From: Eubacteriales bacterium
GTDB taxonomy: Bacteria; Bacillota; Clostridia; Oscillospirales; QAKW01
Assembly: GCA_045546995.1 (NCBI GenBank)
Contig: JAZQDW010000001.1
Coordinates: forward strand, 4,156-68,155
Direction: 5' to 3'
Length of the DNA stretch: 64,000 nucleotides
Program-made: the position numbers and the translations under genes
Notes under the pieces: model-generated
Seen by the model: only the letters and a program-made list of their open reading frames with translations
What the model was told of the DNA's origin: nothing
The model's database searches: none
Shown here: piece after piece, positions 49,220 through 64,000 of the stretch
Numbering within the stretch: the stretch's first letter is position 1
How the letters are laid out: each line of letters starts with the position of its first letter

Positions 49220-49241
49220 ATAGTTTTTTGCAATAAAACGA

Positions 49242-49335
49242 CTTTTGACACGTTAATAGGTTGCCAAAAAGGAAGTTGCATTTCGTCAACAAAGTTCCGT
49301 CGGCGTAGGTGGCTACGACAGGAGATTTGTTGGCG
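49242..49335. repeat. structured repeat element, copy A (52-nt three-helix hairpin at 49284-49335)
   Basis: Aligns with the reverse complement of 51623-51731. The hairpin reads CGTCAACA-AAG-TTCC-GTCGG-CGTAG-GTGG-CTACG-ACA-GGAG-ATT-TGTTGGCG. Confidence 0.7.
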
Positions 49336-49339
49336 GCCG

Positions 49340-49807
49340 TCACTTTTGTTTTGCCCATTGCTGTAACAAAGCAAATCCGATCATCTCCGGCACAAATTCC
49401 GCCTTTTTGTCCCCAAAATGCAAAATCAGCTTTTGCCCTTCGGTACGTTGTTGTCCTTGCAGGCGCACGCCGTCCAGTTGACTGCGTTGCAAACGCCGCT
49501 TGATAAACAGCAGGCGGCACACGGTAATTCCCGTTTCATCCACCGTGGCCCGCCATAACAGCCAATCCAGCATCAACAACAGCAACAGCCCACCCAAAAC
49601 GTAACACAGCACGGCGGGCCACACCGCATCGATTACCTGCAGCAACACCGCGATGGCCACGATCAGCACGCACCACGGCAACGCCGACAGGGAAAACAAC
49701 GGATGATACCGCATCACAAAGTTCCGCCCATCCATTACCCGTTCCGCCGCGCGAGCCGCCGTAACGGCGCGCCGTTCCAGCACGTTTAACACTTTATCCG
49801 ATTTCAT
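49340..49807 (-). CDS. membrane protein, unknown function
   Basis: 155 aa with two central TM helices (LPWCVLIVAIAVLLQVI, VLCYVLGGLLLLLMLDWLLW). No family recognised. Confidence 0.6.
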   Translation of the reverse strand: MKSDKVLNVLERRAVTAARAAERVMDGRNFVMRYHPLFSLSALPWCVLIVAIAVLLQVIDAVWPAVLCYVLGGLLLLLMLDWLLWRATVDETGITVCRLLFIKRRLQRSQLDGVRLQGQQRTEGQKLILHFGDKKAEFVPEMIGFALLQQWAKQK

Positions 49808-50731: not shown

Positions 50732-51373
50732 TTATTTCATTTTCTCATCAAATCCGGTTTGCATTCCCTGCAAGTGTTCATCCAGACTGTTTTGCTGTAA
50801 CCGTAGCCGTCCATCCTCCCACGTCAGCACCGTGACCGAGGCATTGGTAGCCCAGGGCACCCGATCGACGGTAGCCAGCGTGGGATCCAGACAATAAGCG
50901 CTCAGCAGGCGTACCGGCGTGGCGTGAGCGGCCAACACCACCGTTTGTCCCGAATGGCGGTGCGCGATCTCCTCCAATGCCTGCAGTAAACGCTGTTGCA
51001 GTTGCCGCACCGACTCCCCTTCCGGACAGTAGGCGTTGGCAAAATCGTGGATCCACAAATCCCACAATCGGGGTTCCTCCTTGAGGCTGTCAAACACCTT
51101 GGCCTCCCATCGGCCTCCGTTGATCTCCCGCAGGCCGGGATGCGCAAAAAAGGGCGCGGCGCAGGCGGCCGCAATCTCCTGCCCGGTGACGTAAGCGCGC
51201 TTAAGGTCGCTGGCGTATACCGCCGCAACGTCATAATGCTCCGCAATAAACGCCGCCGTTTTTCTTGCCTGCTCTCTGCCCAGGGGCGTCAGCGGAAAAT
51301 CACTGAACCCGGCAAACAGATCCTGCAGATTGGCCTCGCTTTGTCCGTGACGCACCAGAAGAAAGGTTGTCAT
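50732..51373 (-). CDS. histidine phosphatase (phosphoglycerate mutase) family protein
   Basis: LVRHGQSEAN (RHG motif). AAGGTGGTGA RBS before ATG 51373. The track GTG at 51388 lies inside the RBS. Confidence 0.85.
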   Translation of the reverse strand: MTTFLLVRHGQSEANLQDLFAGFSDFPLTPLGREQARKTAAFIAEHYDVAAVYASDLKRAYVTGQEIAAACAAPFFAHPGLREINGGRWEAKVFDSLKEEPRLWDLWIHDFANAYCPEGESVRQLQQRLLQALEEIAHRHSGQTVVLAAHATPVRLLSAYCLDPTLATVDRVPWATNASVTVLTWEDGRLRLQQNSLDEHLQGMQTGFDEKMK

Positions 51374-51395
51374 TGTCCCGCTCACCACCTTATTT

Positions 51396-51424
51396 TTGTG
51401 TTTTTATTATACCATCACCGTATT
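51396..51424 (-). promoter_or_regulatory. sigma-A-type promoter (TTGACG-17-TATAAT)
   Basis: On the minus strand, TTGACG at 51424-51419 and TATAAT at 51401-51396. Confidence 0.65.
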
Positions 51425-51427
51425 TTT

Positions 51428-51458
51428 TCGTCAACAGAAAAAGGTTGGATCAAGATCC
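51428..51458. terminator. terminator-like hairpin (GGTTGGATC stem), copy 1
   Basis: AAAAAGGTTGGATC-aa-GATCCAACCCTTTTT. Confidence 0.65.
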
Positions 51459-51622
51459 AACCCTTTTTAGAGTGTAAAAAAAGTCGTTTCACCACAGAGA
51501 AACGATCAAAACAAATATATTTATTTGTGTATAACAGTAGATATAAATTGCTATATAGGTATACCGATCACTTAAATTTAAACATCAGGCGCCCTTGCAA
51601 CGCAAGGGATTGCTCTGTTTTC

Positions 51623-51731
51623 CGCGAACAAATCTCCTACCGTACCCACGTACGCTGACGGAGCTCTGTTCGCGAAATGCAACTTCCTTTTTTGCACTCC
51701 ACAGCGTGTCAAAGAAACTTCTTTGACACGC
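51623..51731. repeat. structured repeat element, copy B (hairpin 51623-51674, plus a 13-bp-stem hairpin at 51704-51731)
   Basis: The reverse complement reads CGCGAACA-GAG-CTCC-GTCAG-CGTAC-GTGG-GTACG-GTA-GGAG-ATT-TGTTCGCG. It is flanked by CGAAATGCAACTTCCTTTTTTGCA. Confidence 0.7.
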
Positions 51732-51733
51732 TG

Positions 51734-51763
51734 AAAAGGTTGGATCTTCCGATCCAACCTTTT
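51734..51763. terminator. terminator-like hairpin (GGTTGGATC stem), copy 2; terminator of MATE gene 51765..53168
   Basis: AAAAGGTTGGATC-ttcc-GATCCAACCTTTT, 1 nt from the MATE stop codon. Confidence 0.7.
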
Positions 51764-51764
51764 A

Positions 51765-53168
51765 TTATCGAATTGCTTTGGTTTTCCATTTACCCAGCTT
51801 GTAAAAGATAATGGTCAATACGGCGCCCAGCACCCAGGAGGACAGCAGAGAGATGGAGATACATTCAAACCGTCCGTAGGGCAGTTCTGCCGTGCGGGTC
51901 AGCCAAGAAATACCGTAGGCCAGCGGTACACGGATCAACACGGTAGTGATCAACGAGATCCACATCGGCGTCATGGTATCGCCGGCGCCGCGCATAATAC
52001 CCGAAAGACTTTGCGTTACGGCCATAGCGATATATCCCACTGCCAAAATGGTCATCAGATAATAACTCAGATCGACCAGCGCATCGGTCTCGGTAAAAAT
52101 ACCCATCAGCCATTTGCCGAACAGCAAAATGATCAACGTGATGGCCGCCGAACAGCCCACCGCCATACCGGTGCCCTGTTTGGCGCCCTTCATTACACGG
52201 TCATAGCGACCGGCGCCCACGTTTTGCCCCGCATAGGTGGTCAGCGCCGTACCAAAGGAAAAGTTGGGCATCATGGCAAAGCCGTCCACACGCATAACGA
52301 TCACGTTGGCGGCAATCAATTGCTCGCCGAAGGAGTTGGTCAGTGATTGCACGGTCAGCATCGCCGCCGAAAAGATGGCCTGTGTGGCGCCGGCGGGCAG
52401 ACCCAGTTTCACAATGGTCTTAACGTACGACTTTTTAGGGCGCATAAAACGCAGACCAAAATCAAAATGCTGACGCATTCTGGCCAATTTGATGCCGCAC
52501 AACAGGGACGAAATAATCTGAGCAATGACGGTGGCCAACGCCACGCCGGCTACACCCATATCAAGAAAAGCGACAAAATAAATGTCCAGCACGATGTTGA
52601 TCACCGTGGCAACGAGCAAATACAGCAGTGCCGAAAAGGAATCACCCAGTCCGCGCAACACGCCGCTGAGAATGTTGTAATAGGCCATACCGGCTCCGCC
52701 GAGCAGGGAGATCATCAAATAGTCGGTGCACCAGGGTAAAATGCTTTCCGGAGTGTTAAGCAATACCAGCACCGGACGGATCAACGGCGCGCAGATCAGC
52801 ATTAACGCCAGACAGGCAATGGCCGTCACGGTGATACAATTGCCCACGGTATAAGATAAGCCTTCTCGATTTTTGGCGCCAAAATACTGGCTGACCATAA
52901 TATTTACGCCCGCCGAAATGCCGATAAACAGCACCAACAGCAAATTGAGGATCGGCGCCGCACTGCCGACGGCGGCCAGCGCATTATCCCCCACGTAACG
53001 GCCCACCACAATGCTGTCCACTGTGGAATACAGCTGTTGGGCAATGTTGCCGATCAGCATCGGTACGGTAAACCACAGGATATTTTTCCAGGGTTTACCC
53101 TTGGTCATATCCTGCGGAGCGTATAATTTTTTAAAAACTCCGTTTACTGTTTTAAGCAAAATATTCAA
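51765..53168 (-). CDS. MATE family efflux transporter
   Basis: 467 aa, 12 TM helices. WFTVPMLIGNIAQQLYSTVDSIVVGRYVG. Confidence 0.85.
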   Translation of the reverse strand: MNILLKTVNGVFKKLYAPQDMTKGKPWKNILWFTVPMLIGNIAQQLYSTVDSIVVGRYVGDNALAAVGSAAPILNLLLVLFIGISAGVNIMVSQYFGAKNREGLSYTVGNCITVTAIACLALMLICAPLIRPVLVLLNTPESILPWCTDYLMISLLGGAGMAYYNILSGVLRGLGDSFSALLYLLVATVINIVLDIYFVAFLDMGVAGVALATVIAQIISSLLCGIKLARMRQHFDFGLRFMRPKKSYVKTIVKLGLPAGATQAIFSAAMLTVQSLTNSFGEQLIAANVIVMRVDGFAMMPNFSFGTALTTYAGQNVGAGRYDRVMKGAKQGTGMAVGCSAAITLIILLFGKWLMGIFTETDALVDLSYYLMTILAVGYIAMAVTQSLSGIMRGAGDTMTPMWISLITTVLIRVPLAYGISWLTRTAELPYGRFECISISLLSSWVLGAVLTIIFYKLGKWKTKAIR

Positions 53169-61754: not shown

Positions 61755-61884
61755 GGTCAGCTCCCCTTTGTCGCAAGATATGTTCTTATAAAAGTATAAA
61801 ATGGTTTGCGCCGTCTGTCAATCATAAGATGCAAAAATAAAGCATCTTACCGAGGGGGGCAAGACAGAGAGCCGTTCCCTTGTG

Positions 61885-62934
61885 TTATGTTTTATGATGG
61901 GTAAGATTGTCCTTAATGATGTTCTCACCATTGCCGTCGTATACAATGCTCTGTCTGATCGCGCTCTGGAACATCACGTTGCTCTGGATAACTACGGCGG
62001 TAGAGTTGACCATATAAACATCGTAATCGGGACTCCGCGTACCGCGTCCGTCATCGTTTACACCCCATTTGAAGGTGTTTCCGGTAAGCGTTACGTTCTG
62101 CGCATTGTCAAAATATACATGGGAATTTTCATATTCCGAGGCAAATTCCATACCGCCGGGACAACCGGAACGGCGGAAAATATTTCCTGTGATTGTAACA
62201 TCGCGGAACTGTCCGCCTCCGCCAAGTTTGACTGCGGGCCCGAAGGAACGGTCGAAGAAATTACCGGTGATATTGACAGAGTCACCGTTCCGGAACCAAA
62301 AGCCGGATTCGCGGTTCCATTCCACCCGGTTTCCGGTTGCGGTGACGGATGCGGTGAAGGGGCCGCCGAGAATACCGGAGTGTCGGTTGGCGGTAAACCA
62401 GTTATCAATAATAAATGCGTCCCATCCGTCAATATACAGGCCGGCGCCGCCGTTTCGATGGAGCATGGAATGGCGGACCGAGAAGCACCAGATATGTTCA
62501 AGATGTACGCCGTCACCGGAAAAATTACCGACGCGGCAATCGTCAATTGCAGGGGTATCCTCCTCGGAACCACCGTTGTACCGTTCCCAATACAGATAGA
62601 TACCGTGAATGTTTGTTCCGAGTTTTTGTCCGTCGAAACACATTCCGGAGATCGAACAGCCGAACGCGCCGGTGATATCCAGAAGACATACTGCTTCCGG
62701 ATCGTTCAGAAGGAAGACCGAGCTGCCGTCTGCGCGGAAATTCTATGCGGAATCTCCTTCAAGGCGGGTACGGATTCCCATTTTCAGACGTCCGGTCAGA
62801 TATCTTCCTGCCGGGACAACAACTTTTCCTTCCACCTTTGCCGCATCGTCCAGCGCCTGCTGGATTGCAGCGGTACAATCGGTCTTTCCGTCGCCGACGG
62901 CACCATAGGCGGTGATATCAAATACGTTTGTCAT
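61885..62934 (-). pseudogene. pectate-lyase-fold (right-handed beta-helix) protein interrupted by one in-frame TAG
   Basis: N-terminal ORF (62934..62746) MTNVFDITAYGAVGDGKTDCTAAIQQALDDA ends at TAG 62745-62743. The same frame stays open for 33 codons (NFRADGSSVFLLNDPEAVCLLDITGAFGCSISG) into the ORF that the track starts at ATG 62643. Beta-helix turns VTATGNRVEWN, VNITGNFFD, VTITGNIFR, VTLTGNTFK. Confidence 0.7.
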
Positions 62935-62987
62935 AATAACCTCCCGATAAATGTACTGTAGTTGTTTTAATCATTGCTGAAAACACA

Positions 62988-63076
62988 AGAACACAAGGGG
63001 ACGGTTCTCTTGTGTTCTTTGAATTTTCTCACACGGCCTGGGGCTGTCAACACAATAGAACCGTCCCCTTGTGTTG
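62988..63076. repeat. two hairpins with mutually complementary loops (19-bp inverted repeat AACACAAGGGGACGGTTCT / AGAACCGTCCCCTTGTGTT)
   Basis: Hairpin 1: AGAACACAAG(62988-62997)/CTTGTGTTCT(63009-63018). Hairpin 2: CAACACAA(63048-63055)/TTGTGTTG(63069-63076). A degenerate third copy AGAGCCGTTCCCTTGTGTT lies at 61868-61886. Confidence 0.75.
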
Positions 63077-63130
63077 TGGCTTTTGAGCCGTCCGCCTTAT
63101 CGCTTCCGTTTACAGAAACATAATAGATCA

Positions 63131-64000
63131 TTATAACGTCTCCGATTTACTAAATAGAATCTGATTTACGATACCATGCAAATATTCCTGTCTGCCGCTT
63201 GATGGAAGTGCAGGGGCGCCCATATCTTCGGCAATTTTTGCAAGCTCTGAAAGGGTCGTATTGCCATCCACAATTTTTTTGCCGATGCCTGTTTCAAAAC
63301 TTGAATATTTTTCTTTAACAAAGCTGTCAAGTCTGCCGTCTTCGATGATAGATGCTGCCTTAATAAGCCCAAGCGCAAAGGTGTCCATCCCCAAGATAAA
63401 CGCGTGGAACATATCTTCAGCGGTATAACTTGCACGACGTGTTTTTGAATCGAAATTAAAACCGCCCGTAAGACCGCCTGACTTTAGCACCTCGTACATA
63501 CACATCGTTGCATCGTATACGTTGGCAGGGAATTCATCGGTATCCCATCCAAGTAACAGATCTCCTTGATTAGCATCGATTGAACCCAGCATACCGTTCA
63601 TAGCCGAAACACGCAGTTCGTGTTGGAACGTGTGGCCTGCAAGGGTGGCGTGGTTGGCTTCAATATTCATTTTAAAATCTTTATCAAGATCGTATTGACG
63701 TAAAAAGCCGATTGCCGTTGCGGCATCAAAATCGTATTGATGCTTCATAGGCTCCTTCGGCTTGGGTTCAATGTAAAAATCACCCGTAAAGCCAATAGAA
63801 CGACCATAATCAACCGCCATCTTCATAAGCCGGGCAATGTTTTCCTGTTCAAACTTCATATCGGTATTAAGCAACGTTTCGTATCCCTCTCTGCCGCCCC
63901 AGAACACATAACCCTTACCACCAAGTTTTACCGTAAGATCAAGCGCCTTTTTAACCTGTGCCGCCGCGAAACAGAAAACGTCTGCCGAATTTGTGCTGCC
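63131..64000 (-). CDS. xylA: xylose isomerase (5' end beyond the window)
   Basis: [40 protein letters not shown] and GWDTDEFP signatures. The frame stays open to position 64000 (..[21 protein letters not shown]..). Confidence 0.95.

Follow-up and report, generated by a model that had tools for sequence, protein, structure and literature searches.

Bacterial MITEs such as Correia/NEMIS, RUP, bcr1 and ERIC often lie near gene ends, where they can bear promoter or terminator signals, and the known MITEs generate short target duplications of fixed length (2-10 bp). In the IS1182 family, the target duplications recorded in ISfinder range from 0 to 60 bp. In addition, class C group II introns reportedly home just past intrinsic terminator stem-loops by means of DNA structure, as Robart, Seo and Zimmerly are said to have described in PNAS in 2007. 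Within the IS1182 family, IS1272 and TnSha1 target terminator hairpins by structure, with no sequence specificity and with a variable size of the stem-loop (PMC4923244; PMC5678879). In the model of Wan et al. for IS1272, one pathway duplicates the entire stem-loop. Members of the IS1202 family generate duplications that are fixed within each subgroup (5-6, 15-17 or 27-28 bp) and have ends that begin with TGT, and one subgroup targets imperfectly palindromic XerCD sites (10.1101/2022.12.17.520857). Finally, ssr9 of ISPpu9, from the IS110 family in Pseudomonas putida, is a short sRNA-bearing module with IS-like end boxes; at several palindromic REP sites it stands by itself, and it has been proposed to rely on a transposase encoded at another site (PMC12288879).

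Here we describe a hairpin-rich spacer in a window of 64,000 nucleotides, the whole stretch of DNA that was analyzed, from an uncultured Eubacteriales bacterium. All data for the window and for the loci compared with it, which carry L numbers, are metagenome assemblies. The 376-bp region lies between a MATE gene (51765..53168, minus strand) and a histidine phosphatase gene (His_Phos; 50732..51373, minus strand) and, because both genes are on the minus strand, is a tandem-gene spacer. The right terminator copy (T1) begins 1 nt beyond the MATE stop codon (51767-51765) on the minus strand. A strong promoter for His_Phos follows directly past the left hairpin, read from 51467 to 51438, with the RBS AAGGTGGTG next and then the ATG at 51373. 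The same promoter stands after a lone terminator in L002 and after a T2-like hairpin in L001. We consider it probable, with a chance of roughly three in four, that this is an ordinary terminator-plus-promoter spacer invaded by a 266-bp non-autonomous MITE-like element in plus orientation (Table 1). The His_Phos promoter lies outside the element and is intact after the insertion.

Table 1. Features of the MATE-His_Phos spacer and of a second, partial copy, in window positions
Feature	Position	Strand	Description
Left hairpin copy (T2)	51438..51467		AAAAAGGTTGGATC-AA-GATCCAACCCTTTT; last minus-strand terminator ahead of the His_Phos promoter
Right hairpin copy (T1)	51734..51763		AAAAGGTTGGATC-TTCC-GATCCAACCTTTT
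Probable inserted 266-bp non-coding MITE-like element	51468..51733	+	Homologous 253-267-bp units between duplicated local hairpins in L003, L005 and L009
Left terminal inverted repeat	51468..51483	+	TAGAGTGTAAAAAAAG, degenerate here; family consensus CAGACTGTCAAAAAAG
Subterminal left-end hairpin	51484..51505	+	GTCGTTTCACCACAGAGAAACGA
AT-rich internal spacer	51506..51588	+	Poorly conserved, unalignable between genomes; houses the previously suggested putative promoter at about 51549-51578
Core hairpin 1	51592..51608	+	CCCTTGC-aac-GCAAGGG, then conserved CTCTGTTTTCC
Core hairpin 2	51620..51677	+	Long interrupted stem with conserved apical part, TACCGTACCCACGTACGCYGAC
Linker CGAAATGCAACTTCCTTTTTT	51673..51693	+	CU-rich, mostly unpaired, nearly invariant in the 9-copy alignment
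Hairpin 3, right end of the element	51702..51733	+	Perfect 15-bp palindrome CAGCGTGTCAAAGAA-ac-TTCTTTGACACGCTG
Copy B, truncated degenerate core	49224..49365	-	Begins 4 nt past the stop of a 155-aa gene
His_Phos sigma-70-type promoter	51406..51434	-	TTGACG-17-TATAAT, 11/12 match, TG upstream

The two hairpins that bracket the element share their stem. The 9-mer GGTTGGATC occurs four times in the window, in every case within the twin hairpins, compared with a mean of 0.68 in shuffled sequences, of which 0 of 100 reach four. An earlier, sequence-only reading of this DNA had recognized the twin hairpins and their common stem, and both indeed exist; its position for the first, 51428-51458, was about 10 nt too low, and the start-to-start spacing is 295 bp rather than 306 bp. 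Two of the smaller hairpins it described, TCGTTTC/GAAACGA and CCCTTGC-aac-GCAAGGG, are present exactly where it had placed them. The larger palindromes are also real and have to be redrawn. The big repeat hairpin, given as 52 nt at 51623-51674, has 18-nt arms at 51620-51637 and 51660-51677 that are 83% complementary, and the perfect palindrome has 15 bp per arm, at 51702-51716 and 51719-51733, instead of 13. The hairpin at the MATE-His_Phos site is the AAAAGGGTTGGATCGGAAGATCCAACCTTTT hairpin.

Our comparison across loci provides the main evidence for insertion. Every complete copy of the element lies between two direct copies of an entire terminator-like hairpin, the sequence and length of which are specific to the locus. 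The duplicated hairpin measures 25 bp in L003 (AAGGCGCATCAAATTGATGCGCCTT), 38 bp in L005 (AAAACTCCCCATAAAGCATTCGCTTTATGGGGAGTTTG) and about 32 bp in L009, where it stands at three successive positions of an array. The duplication length follows the length of the palindrome within about 2 nt (25, 31, 32 and 38 bp). The hairpins flanking L004, L005 and L008, all from one MAG, are unrelated, yet the cores of L005 and L008 are 95% identical. The five unrelated flanking hairpins are situated directly past stop codons or between convergent genes.

The site without the element is found in a related species, where L002 has the MATE stop, one terminator, TTGACG-17-TATAAT and His_Phos in a 120-bp spacer; in L023 the MATE-His_Phos spacer is 17 bp, and no empty site was found in the window species itself. 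The sequence-only reading had suggested that a block of about 300 bp was inserted at an existing terminator with duplication of its stem, and had proposed looking for presence or absence of the block in relatives. This suggestion is now strongly supported: L002 lacks the block and retains a single terminator, the block recurs at unrelated loci elsewhere, each time bracketed by a duplicated local hairpin, and the twin hairpins of the sister strains L018 and L019 are identical across 31 bp, loop included. The right-hand duplicate is missing, or the copy is truncated, in L004, L013 and copy B of the window, and the MITE reading therefore needs secondary deletions at these sites.

The element is bounded as CAGnnTGTCAAA...TTTGACAnnCTG, and both of its ends start with CAG. 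Its terminal inverted repeats are imperfect (CAGnnTGTCAAA): the left-end consensus, derived from an alignment of the window, L003, L004, L005, L009 and L013 copies, shares 12 of 16 positions with the reverse complement of the right end, CAGCGTGTCAAAGAGG, and the right terminal inverted repeat reads CTCTTTGACACGCTG. Next to the left end, the AAAAAGTCGTTTCACYRCAG of the subterminal hairpin is kept in every copy that retains this end, and on the minus strand (51505-51484) the hairpin is followed by T7 with the tail CTTTTTTTAC and was flagged as terminator-like. Hairpin 1 together with CTCTGTTTTC is terminator-like in the plus direction in L003, L005 and L009. At the other end, hairpin 3 supplies the right terminal inverted repeat with its 3′ arm, and its 5′ arm is similar to the left end. 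The L006/L007 variant differs both at the left end and in the hairpin 3 palindrome, in related ways. The element contains no ORF and no frame is conserved across its copies, as one frame that some copies keep open is closed in the window copy and in L013. A small protein gene was considered and rejected, given that a search of 5.8 billion proteins gave no homologue of the 59-aa minus-strand ORF and that frames are broken or shifted between copies. Consistent with a MITE, the unit is shorter than 500 bp, encodes no transposase, and has terminal inverted repeats, locus-specific duplications and dispersed copies. Its target duplications are atypically long for a MITE and are coextensive with the palindrome.

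A covariance model of the family scores 156.9 bits (E = 8e-33) on 51587-51733, and the family comprises at least 11 copies in 5 organisms, namely the window and four other uncultured Clostridia/Eubacteriales assemblies from gut or rumen. A pattern scan returned 8 exact matches at 7 loci in 3 species-representative MAGs, and a left-end scan of JGI metagenomes returned 1 true copy and 7 apparent chance matches. The copy of the window species is also present in three further assemblies. The element adjoins unrelated housekeeping genes in either orientation; the genes flanking its copies include an AraC-family regulator, acetate kinase, a Clp-type AAA ATPase, aspartokinase, an ECF-transporter S component, peptidase U32 and an ICMT-family methyltransferase. 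The copies of L009 stand in tandem, with a period of 299 bp and 97% identity. Contigs end inside the element in L006, L007, L008, L009 and L020, as is expected because it is a multi-copy repeat. In addition to the complete copy, the window holds the degenerate copy B, which is 86% identical to the element across 71 nt by BLAST and scores 103.7 bits with the covariance model (E = 5e-21). Copy B is without the left part, hairpin 1, the second arm of hairpin 3 and the hairpin duplication, and its spacer measures 164 bp in the window versus 70 bp at the orthologous site of L002. The element is rare and confined to uncultured organisms.

The core of the element has a conserved fold, made up of four helices with compensatory changes. 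Both sides have changed in 20 of the 38 core pairs, whereas column shuffles give 5.5 +/- 1.7 (0 of 500 reach 20) and slid controls give 3-6. Helix 1 accounts for 2 changed pairs out of 8, and helices 2 and 3 for 8 out of the 11 pairs of the outer stems; in L013, the entire outer stem of hairpin 2 has been swapped with its pairing retained. The compensatory changes trace mostly to whole-stem swaps in single copies (L013; L006/L007), which could be en-bloc replacements of a palindrome rather than stepwise covariation. Folding of the plus strand at 51585-51775 gives -81.3 kcal/mol, with z = -9.7 versus shuffles, and the minus-strand fold of the spacer has z = -13.5. The counts of G:T and A:C in the stems, 5 versus 8, show no strand preference and are uninformative on the strand of action. 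Palindromic DNA would yield the same compensatory signal as RNA structure. The folded core, comprising hairpins 1-3 and the invariant linker, is most simply read as a cis-acting recognition and structure module of the element, acting as DNA or RNA.

The conserved fold raises the question of a small RNA. The sequence-only reading had proposed an independent plus-strand sRNA of about 180 nt that starts near 51585, a claim that is unsupported as stated. The promoter it named, TTGCTA-18-TTAAAT, falls below the sigma-70 scan threshold in the window, and no sigma-70-like promoter is predicted inside three other complete copies (L003, L005 and L009). A search of the whole window against Rfam at the gathering threshold gave no match, nor did L001, L018 and L021, and the best sub-threshold match was RsaE, with 23 bits versus a threshold of 79 (E = 0.49). 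In a broader form, the block would primarily be an sRNA gene with a plus-strand transcript of about 150-180 nt, comprising hairpins 1-3, a CU-rich seed and the T1 terminator, which we regard as unlikely. In such a transcript, the unpaired seed AACUUCCUUUUUU is predicted to be complementary to purine-rich ribosome-binding sites, and the spread over loci would reflect a mobile module that carries a selfish or sibling family of sRNAs, much as in the case of ssr9 of ISPpu9, an arrangement that fits a mobile element too. Its attraction lies in a fold that is strong and kept with compensatory changes, in the unpaired linker CGAAATGCAACTTCCTTTTT, which is invariant in 9 of 9 aligned copies, in the terminator-shaped hairpin after hairpin 3 in each complete copy, and in the precedent of an sRNA gene that uses an IS transposase to propagate itself (PMC12288879). 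The marks of an sRNA gene are divided, with a 3′ terminator and a conserved, covarying structure present and an own promoter at a conserved position absent. However, conservation within the element is lowest upstream of hairpin 1, hairpin 1 and its T-rich tail would stop transcripts begun upstream, and the duplicated terminators would block read-through from either side. The lack of strand preference in the stems and the absence of an Rfam family at gathering or E-value thresholds likewise speak against a dedicated sRNA gene.

For the insertion of a MITE-like element, we propose that a transposase encoded elsewhere would recognize terminator-like palindromes by their structure, as hairpin or cruciform, and not by their sequence. 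This enzyme would attack the feet of the hairpin or cruciform target, and the target-site duplication would therefore be the whole terminator. Gap repair would then copy the entire stem-loop to each side, producing twin terminators. Every insertion would leave two fresh target hairpins, and alternating terminator-element arrays (T-E-T-E, as in L009) could therefore form by re-insertion or unequal exchange. After the insertion, MATE transcription would still reach a terminator 1 nt past the stop codon, and read-through would then meet two further terminator-like hairpins. Because termination is kept and the His_Phos promoter is untouched, the insertion was probably nearly neutral and the element is probably insulated from outside transcription on both sides. 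With regard to an autonomous partner, no other CAGnnTGTCAAA ends were found in the window or the fetched loci, only those of the elements themselves; the window is free of IS-like inverted repeats, plasmid, phage and viral collections gave no matches, and no transposase is among the genes flanking other copies. The absence of a partner from these places counts against the proposal, as do the match of the terminal inverted repeats at no more than 12 of 16 positions and the hairpin deletion documented for IS1272. A relic transposase C-terminus was considered for one frame, which in L003, L005 and L008 stays open across the core until a TGA in the right inverted repeat. This candidate was rejected: the copy B peptide had three weak matches among 1.84 billion representatives (E = 6e-6 to 2e-5, at most 42 bits), which are without a transposase domain and look spurious.

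An origin without any transposase, in which template switching or illegitimate recombination at hairpins creates the terminator-element-terminator arrangement, appears quite improbable to us. In such a scheme, replication forks stalled at terminator palindromes would copy a nearby or ectopic segment and re-prime, and arrays would grow via slippage or unequal crossing-over. The tandem array of L009 would suit this scheme, as would copy B, which resembles a recombinant of the 5′ arm of hairpin 3 with a left end, and the fact that a transposase was not found in the window, fetched loci or flanking genes. However, both ends of the element are constant within a few nt beside unrelated hairpins, at unlinked loci and in different genomes, and this constancy is what end-specific cleavage and joining, rather than template switching, leaves behind. 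Template switching is further disfavored by the existence of terminal inverted repeats and by the related differences of the left end and right palindrome in L006/L007. A site-specific or RNA-guided recombinase, such as an IS110/IS1111 bridge-RNA system, a tyrosine recombinase or Xer, is highly improbable as the agent. The core would then be a guide RNA or recombination site. In favor of this, it forms over about 150 nt a conserved and structured module that is RNA-like and non-coding, IS110-family elements target palindromic REP and carry structured ncRNAs, and sRNA modules with a mobility of their own exist (PMC12288879). The loops of the core are invariant, whereas the target hairpins are unrelated in sequence, and the core therefore cannot encode complementarity to its targets; bridge-RNA or site-specific recombination was rejected on this ground. 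In addition, such a recombinase would leave a short shared core sequence and not a locus-specific palindrome duplicate of 25-38 bp, and no recombinase gene is adjacent at any locus.

The idea that the spacer is a minus-strand regulatory region, either the leader of His_Phos (a riboswitch or attenuator) or an element of the MATE 3′-UTR, draws on the minus-strand location of both genes and on the very stable minus-strand fold. However, the His_Phos promoter is downstream of the entire block, relatives have the same gene pair with spacers of 17 bp or 120 bp and no block, the block occurs beside unrelated genes elsewhere in either orientation, and it has no Rfam match. This idea has a negligible chance of being correct and seems effectively refuted by the comparative data. 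Two other classes of mobile DNA were also set aside. A group II intron beside the terminator of L021 was rejected, as the neighbor is a pyridine-nucleotide-disulphide oxidoreductase and no intron model matches; the group II intron models of Rfam had no match in the whole window, L001, L018 or L021. IS200/IS605-derived PATE or REPIN elements have subterminal hairpins, as the element does, but no terminal inverted repeats and no target duplication, whereas the element has both.

Insertion of a MITE-like element explains twin-terminator spacers that are otherwise liable to be annotated as sRNA genes or attenuators, and it accounts for MAG contig breaks in these Clostridia. Importantly, the family would offer natural, multi-locus evidence for duplication of a whole stem-loop by hairpin-targeted transposition, a process that in the literature found is drawn only as a hypothetical pathway of IS1272. 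Because termination and the neighboring promoter are both preserved, the element could insert at gene ends at almost no cost to the host. Once identified, the cognate transposase would permit a direct test of cruciform-directed integration. Taken together, the data also allow a bolder reading, which we put forward tentatively and would not expect to hold: that bacterial transposable elements which gauge their integration by DNA structure and not by a fixed stagger are documented here for the first time, in a family with an invariant folded core that is possibly a functional RNA (or single-stranded DNA) needed in trans. Under this structure-measured reading, the two 5′ feet of a cruciform-extruded terminator would be attacked, resulting in duplication of the entire 25-38 bp palindrome. 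If this were true, an insertion would always recreate two targets, repeated integration could extend arrays of palindromic repeat, insert and palindromic repeat, and a core functional in trans would make the element a selfish structured-RNA module.

Several known systems resemble this element in part. The repeat duplication that accompanies spacer integration in CRISPR is formally similar to the hairpin duplication under the structure-measured reading. Class C group II introns are ribozyme and reverse-transcriptase retroelements of about 2 kb that make no target duplication. The ssr9 module shares with the element its short, non-coding nature, its palindromic sites and a putative transposase acting in trans. 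In contrast, ISPpu9 uses one conserved REP sequence, DEDD-recombinase chemistry and a dinucleotide core, without hairpin duplication, and Ssr9 is a demonstrated transcript. One subgroup of the IS1202 family likewise has unusually long target duplications, of 27-28 bp; here they range from 25 to 38 bp and vary with the hairpin, the ends are CAG, and structure-based targeting of terminators is unreported for IS1202.

The closest known case appears to be the hairpin targeting of the IS1272/IS1182 family. As here, IS1272 and TnSha1 insert at palindromic stem-loops, frequently confirmed terminators just 3′ of a gene, and have terminal inverted repeats of about 16 bp; their cuts fall at the feet of the stem, as is proposed here. 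Furthermore, IS1272L has a duplicated left end, comparable to the left-end likeness of the 5′ arm of hairpin 3 in this element. No IS1182-type transposase is linked to the element. IS1272 is an autonomous IS of 1.9 kb with a DDE transposase, whereas the unit found here is about 266 bp and has no ORF; in IS1272 and TnSha1 the hairpin is deleted or replaced with no target duplication, whereas here the stem-loop is duplicated intact. In its general character the element is like a MITE, being small, non-coding, multi-copy and intergenic, with terminal inverted repeats, extensive secondary structure and a target duplication, but it differs in this duplication, which is 25-38 bp long depending on how large the target palindrome is.

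The 376-bp spacer between the MATE and histidine-phosphatase genes holds what is most likely a non-autonomous, MITE-like transposable element, one that inserts at palindromes resembling terminators and leaves the whole palindrome duplicated. Examination of the spacer region on both strands recovered every hairpin listed by the sequence-only reading, with two adjustments: the coordinates of the first twin hairpin had been set ~10 nt too low and the spacing of the pair is 295 bp rather than 306 bp, and the perfect hairpin described as having a 13-bp stem (51702-51733) has 15-bp arms. The 9-mer common to the twin hairpins has four matches in the window against 0.68 expected, all confined to these two hairpins. 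Plus-strand folding of the region is far more stable than that of shuffles (z = -9.7), and the block has no family match in Rfam. Directly after hairpin 51467-51438, a near-consensus promoter stands ahead of the histidine-phosphatase RBS and ATG.

Features of the spacer, of the element and of the hairpins duplicated around it (window positions; L003, L005 and L009 are comparison loci; T, terminator hairpin; E, element unit)
Feature	Position	Strand	Detail
MATE transporter gene	51765..53168	minus	stop codon 51767-51765
Histidine-phosphatase-family gene	50732..51373	minus	
Left twin hairpin	51438-51467		AAAAAGGTTGGATC-AA-GATCCAACCCTTTT
Right twin hairpin	51734-51763		AAAAGGTTGGATC-TTCC-GATCCAACCTTTT
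Near-consensus promoter	51434..51406	minus	TTGACG-17-TATAAT; sigma-70 scan
Element left end			conserved; CAGACTGTCAAAAAAGTCGTTTCACCACAG
Element spacer	between left end and core		AT-rich, poorly conserved
Element core			~150 nt, strongly conserved; hairpin 1, hairpin 2, invariant linker CGAAATGCAACTTCCTTTTT, hairpin 3
Element right end (hairpin 3)			...CTCTTTGACACGCTG
Copy A	51587-51733		157 bits
Copy B, truncated core	49224-49365	minus	104 bits; begins 4 nt past the stop of a 155-aa gene without Pfam match
Duplicated hairpin, L003			25 bp; AAGGCGCATCAAATTGATGCGCCTT
Duplicated hairpin, L005			38 bp; AAAACTCCCCATAAAGCATTCGCTTTATGGGGAGTTTG
Duplicated hairpin, L009			~32 bp; three occurrences in a T-E-T-E array, 299-bp period

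The element belongs to a repeat family. Self-BLAST of the window identified an inverted second copy of 51622-51692 at 49336-49266 (86% identity), and the differences between the two include compensatory changes in two stems. A degenerate pattern derived from these copies and scanned against one genome per GTDB species gave seven matching loci, several lying at contig ends, within three MAGs of uncultured Clostridia/Eubacteriales, and a left-end pattern added one copy from a JGI metagenome. The aligned copies define a single unit of 253-267 bp that spans from just past the first twin hairpin to just ahead of the second, in which the 3′ arm of hairpin 3 and the left end form an inverted repeat (12/16 positions). 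The element lacks coding capacity. Searching the window with a covariance model of the core returned exactly two copies, A and B. Beyond its core, copy B carries AACGTGTCAAAAGTCGTTTTATTGC, which is like the element left end and unlike hairpin 3; this configuration looks like a collapsed tandem E-T-E array, recombined between the hairpin 3 5′ arm and the left inverted repeat of the next unit. Five independent metagenome contigs (L006, L007, L008, L009 and L020) terminate inside the element, which suggests that its copy number in host genomes is higher than that visible in assemblies.

In all complete copies, the unit is flanked by a direct repeat of a whole stem-loop, the sequence of which is unrelated between loci. 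At every locus, the duplicated segment and the palindrome agree in extent to ~2 nt, indicating that the length of the duplication follows hairpin size. The L004, L005 and L008 copies come from a single MAG and are flanked by hairpins unrelated to one another, despite 95% identity between the cores of L005 and L008. The flanking hairpins lie directly past stop codons or between convergent genes, and the adjoining genes are ordinary housekeeping genes, never transposases. At L009 (1-590, JAZQJG010000089.1), the order is gene-T-E-T-E, with two tandem units 97% identical; the same terminator hairpin precedes and separates both, and the contig stops inside the second.

The insertion site itself can be followed among relatives. 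Three further assemblies encode a MATE protein 99% identical to that of the window; the two sister strains whose whole spacer is covered (L018 and L019) carry the same insertion between twins identical over 31 bp, loop included (AAAAGGGTTGGATCGGAAGATCCAACCTTTT), and in the third (L020) the contig breaks within the element. In the window, the loop of the left hairpin copy has mutated since. In a related species (L002; MATE 90%, phosphatase 71% identical), the site is empty: a 120-bp spacer runs from the MATE stop through one terminator and the same TTGACG-17-TATAAT promoter to the phosphatase. Together with the locus-specific hairpin duplication, this bears out the earlier proposal that a block of ~300 bp was inserted at a pre-existing terminator. 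No empty allele was found within the same species. All sequences are metagenome assemblies, and the arrangement recurs in independent ones. In a more distant relative (L023), the MATE-phosphatase gap is 17 bp (2165-2183), and in L024 (3895-3962) PfkB directly follows MATE, so that gene order near MATE varies among relatives. Another related species (L021 1526-1740 and L001 1-95; MATE 92%, phosphatase 74% identical) has in the same spacer a different hairpin-rich block of ~190 bp, bounded by two hairpins with the common outer stem GTCGAAAC...GTTTCGAC; this block has no similarity to the window element core and could represent a further insertion, again associated with hairpins, at that site.

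The insertion looks nearly neutral, because the terminator after the MATE stop is kept, further terminator-like hairpins follow and the phosphatase promoter is left intact. On the minus strand, MATE transcripts should still reach a terminator 1 nt past the stop codon, and read-through would next meet the left-end hairpin of the element, which has a T7 tail and was flagged as terminator-like on this strand, and then the second terminator copy. The element would likewise be shielded from outside transcription on both sides. Its right end (51702-51733) contains an outward-facing -35-like hexamer, TTGACA, within the inverted repeat, as do the L003, L005 and L009 copies, and the opposite strand of the left end (51468-51483 and the same three copies) contains an outward-facing TTGACA or TTTACA; the duplicated terminators lie directly outside both. 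Outward-facing promoter halves are common at the ends of insertion sequences. Elsewhere in the window, a 36-nt inverted repeat at 62981-63084 (86% complementary, 32-nt spacer, each arm partly palindromic) separates two convergent ORFs, 61882..62961 (+) and 63131..63907 (-), and is probably a large bidirectional terminator.

The independent plus-strand sRNA proposed from the sequence is unsupported: its suggested promoter, TTGCTA-18-TTAAAT, is absent from the sigma-70 scan output, and neither the window copy nor any of three further complete copies has a predicted promoter. An RNA borne by the element and transcribed from the core would be compatible with mobility. The core structure is conserved, with 20 of 38 pairs changed on both sides compared to 5.5 ± 1.7 in shuffles (none of 500 as high) and 3-6 in slid controls, it contains an invariant CU-rich unpaired stretch, a terminator-shaped hairpin directly follows it, and the ssr9 module of ISPpu9 provides a precedent (PMC12288879). 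However, swaps of whole stems in individual copies (L013, from the JGI metagenome; L006/L007) account for most of the compensatory changes, and palindromic DNA can yield such swaps too; the stems show no strand bias (G:T vs A:C, 5 vs 8). Moreover, the sequence upstream of the core is the least conserved part of the element, and hairpin 1 with CTCTGTTTTC is terminator-like in the plus direction. Weighing these points, we consider such an RNA possible, if rather unlikely. A leader or riboswitch was refuted by the position of the phosphatase promoter and by relatives without the block.

Two other routes of insertion are disfavoured. Transposase-free origin through template switching is at odds with the recurrence, from genome to genome, of the same end sequences beside hairpins that are unrelated. 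Recombination of the bridge-RNA or site-specific type fits poorly with core loops that are invariant while targets differ, and would not yield a 25-38 bp target duplication. Under transposition of a MITE-like element, a transposase encoded elsewhere would recognise the stem-loop or cruciform by structure, and repair would then copy the stem-loop to both sides of the element. Neither the window, the fetched loci nor plasmid, phage and viral collections yielded an autonomous partner. The core was also considered as a relic of a transposase C-terminus and rejected, as it gave only weak matches, to proteins without a transposase domain.

This MITE-like family is previously undescribed; its target duplication takes in whole terminators and is sized by structure. 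Target duplications of the IS1182 family span 0-60 bp in ISfinder. Within this family, IS1272 and TnSha1 target terminator hairpins of variable size without sequence specificity, and Siguier et al. 2015, as cited in the same papers, describe palindromes as targets of some members (PMC4923244; PMC5678879). Wan et al. drew the geometry proposed here as one hypothetical route for IS1272 (Fig. 13, pathway b; PMC5678879). The hairpin-targeting logic is therefore related, whereas the outcome differs: insertion of IS1272 or TnSha1 removes the hairpin, with no duplication left behind (PMC4923244; PMC5678879), and the element described here duplicates the hairpin as a whole.
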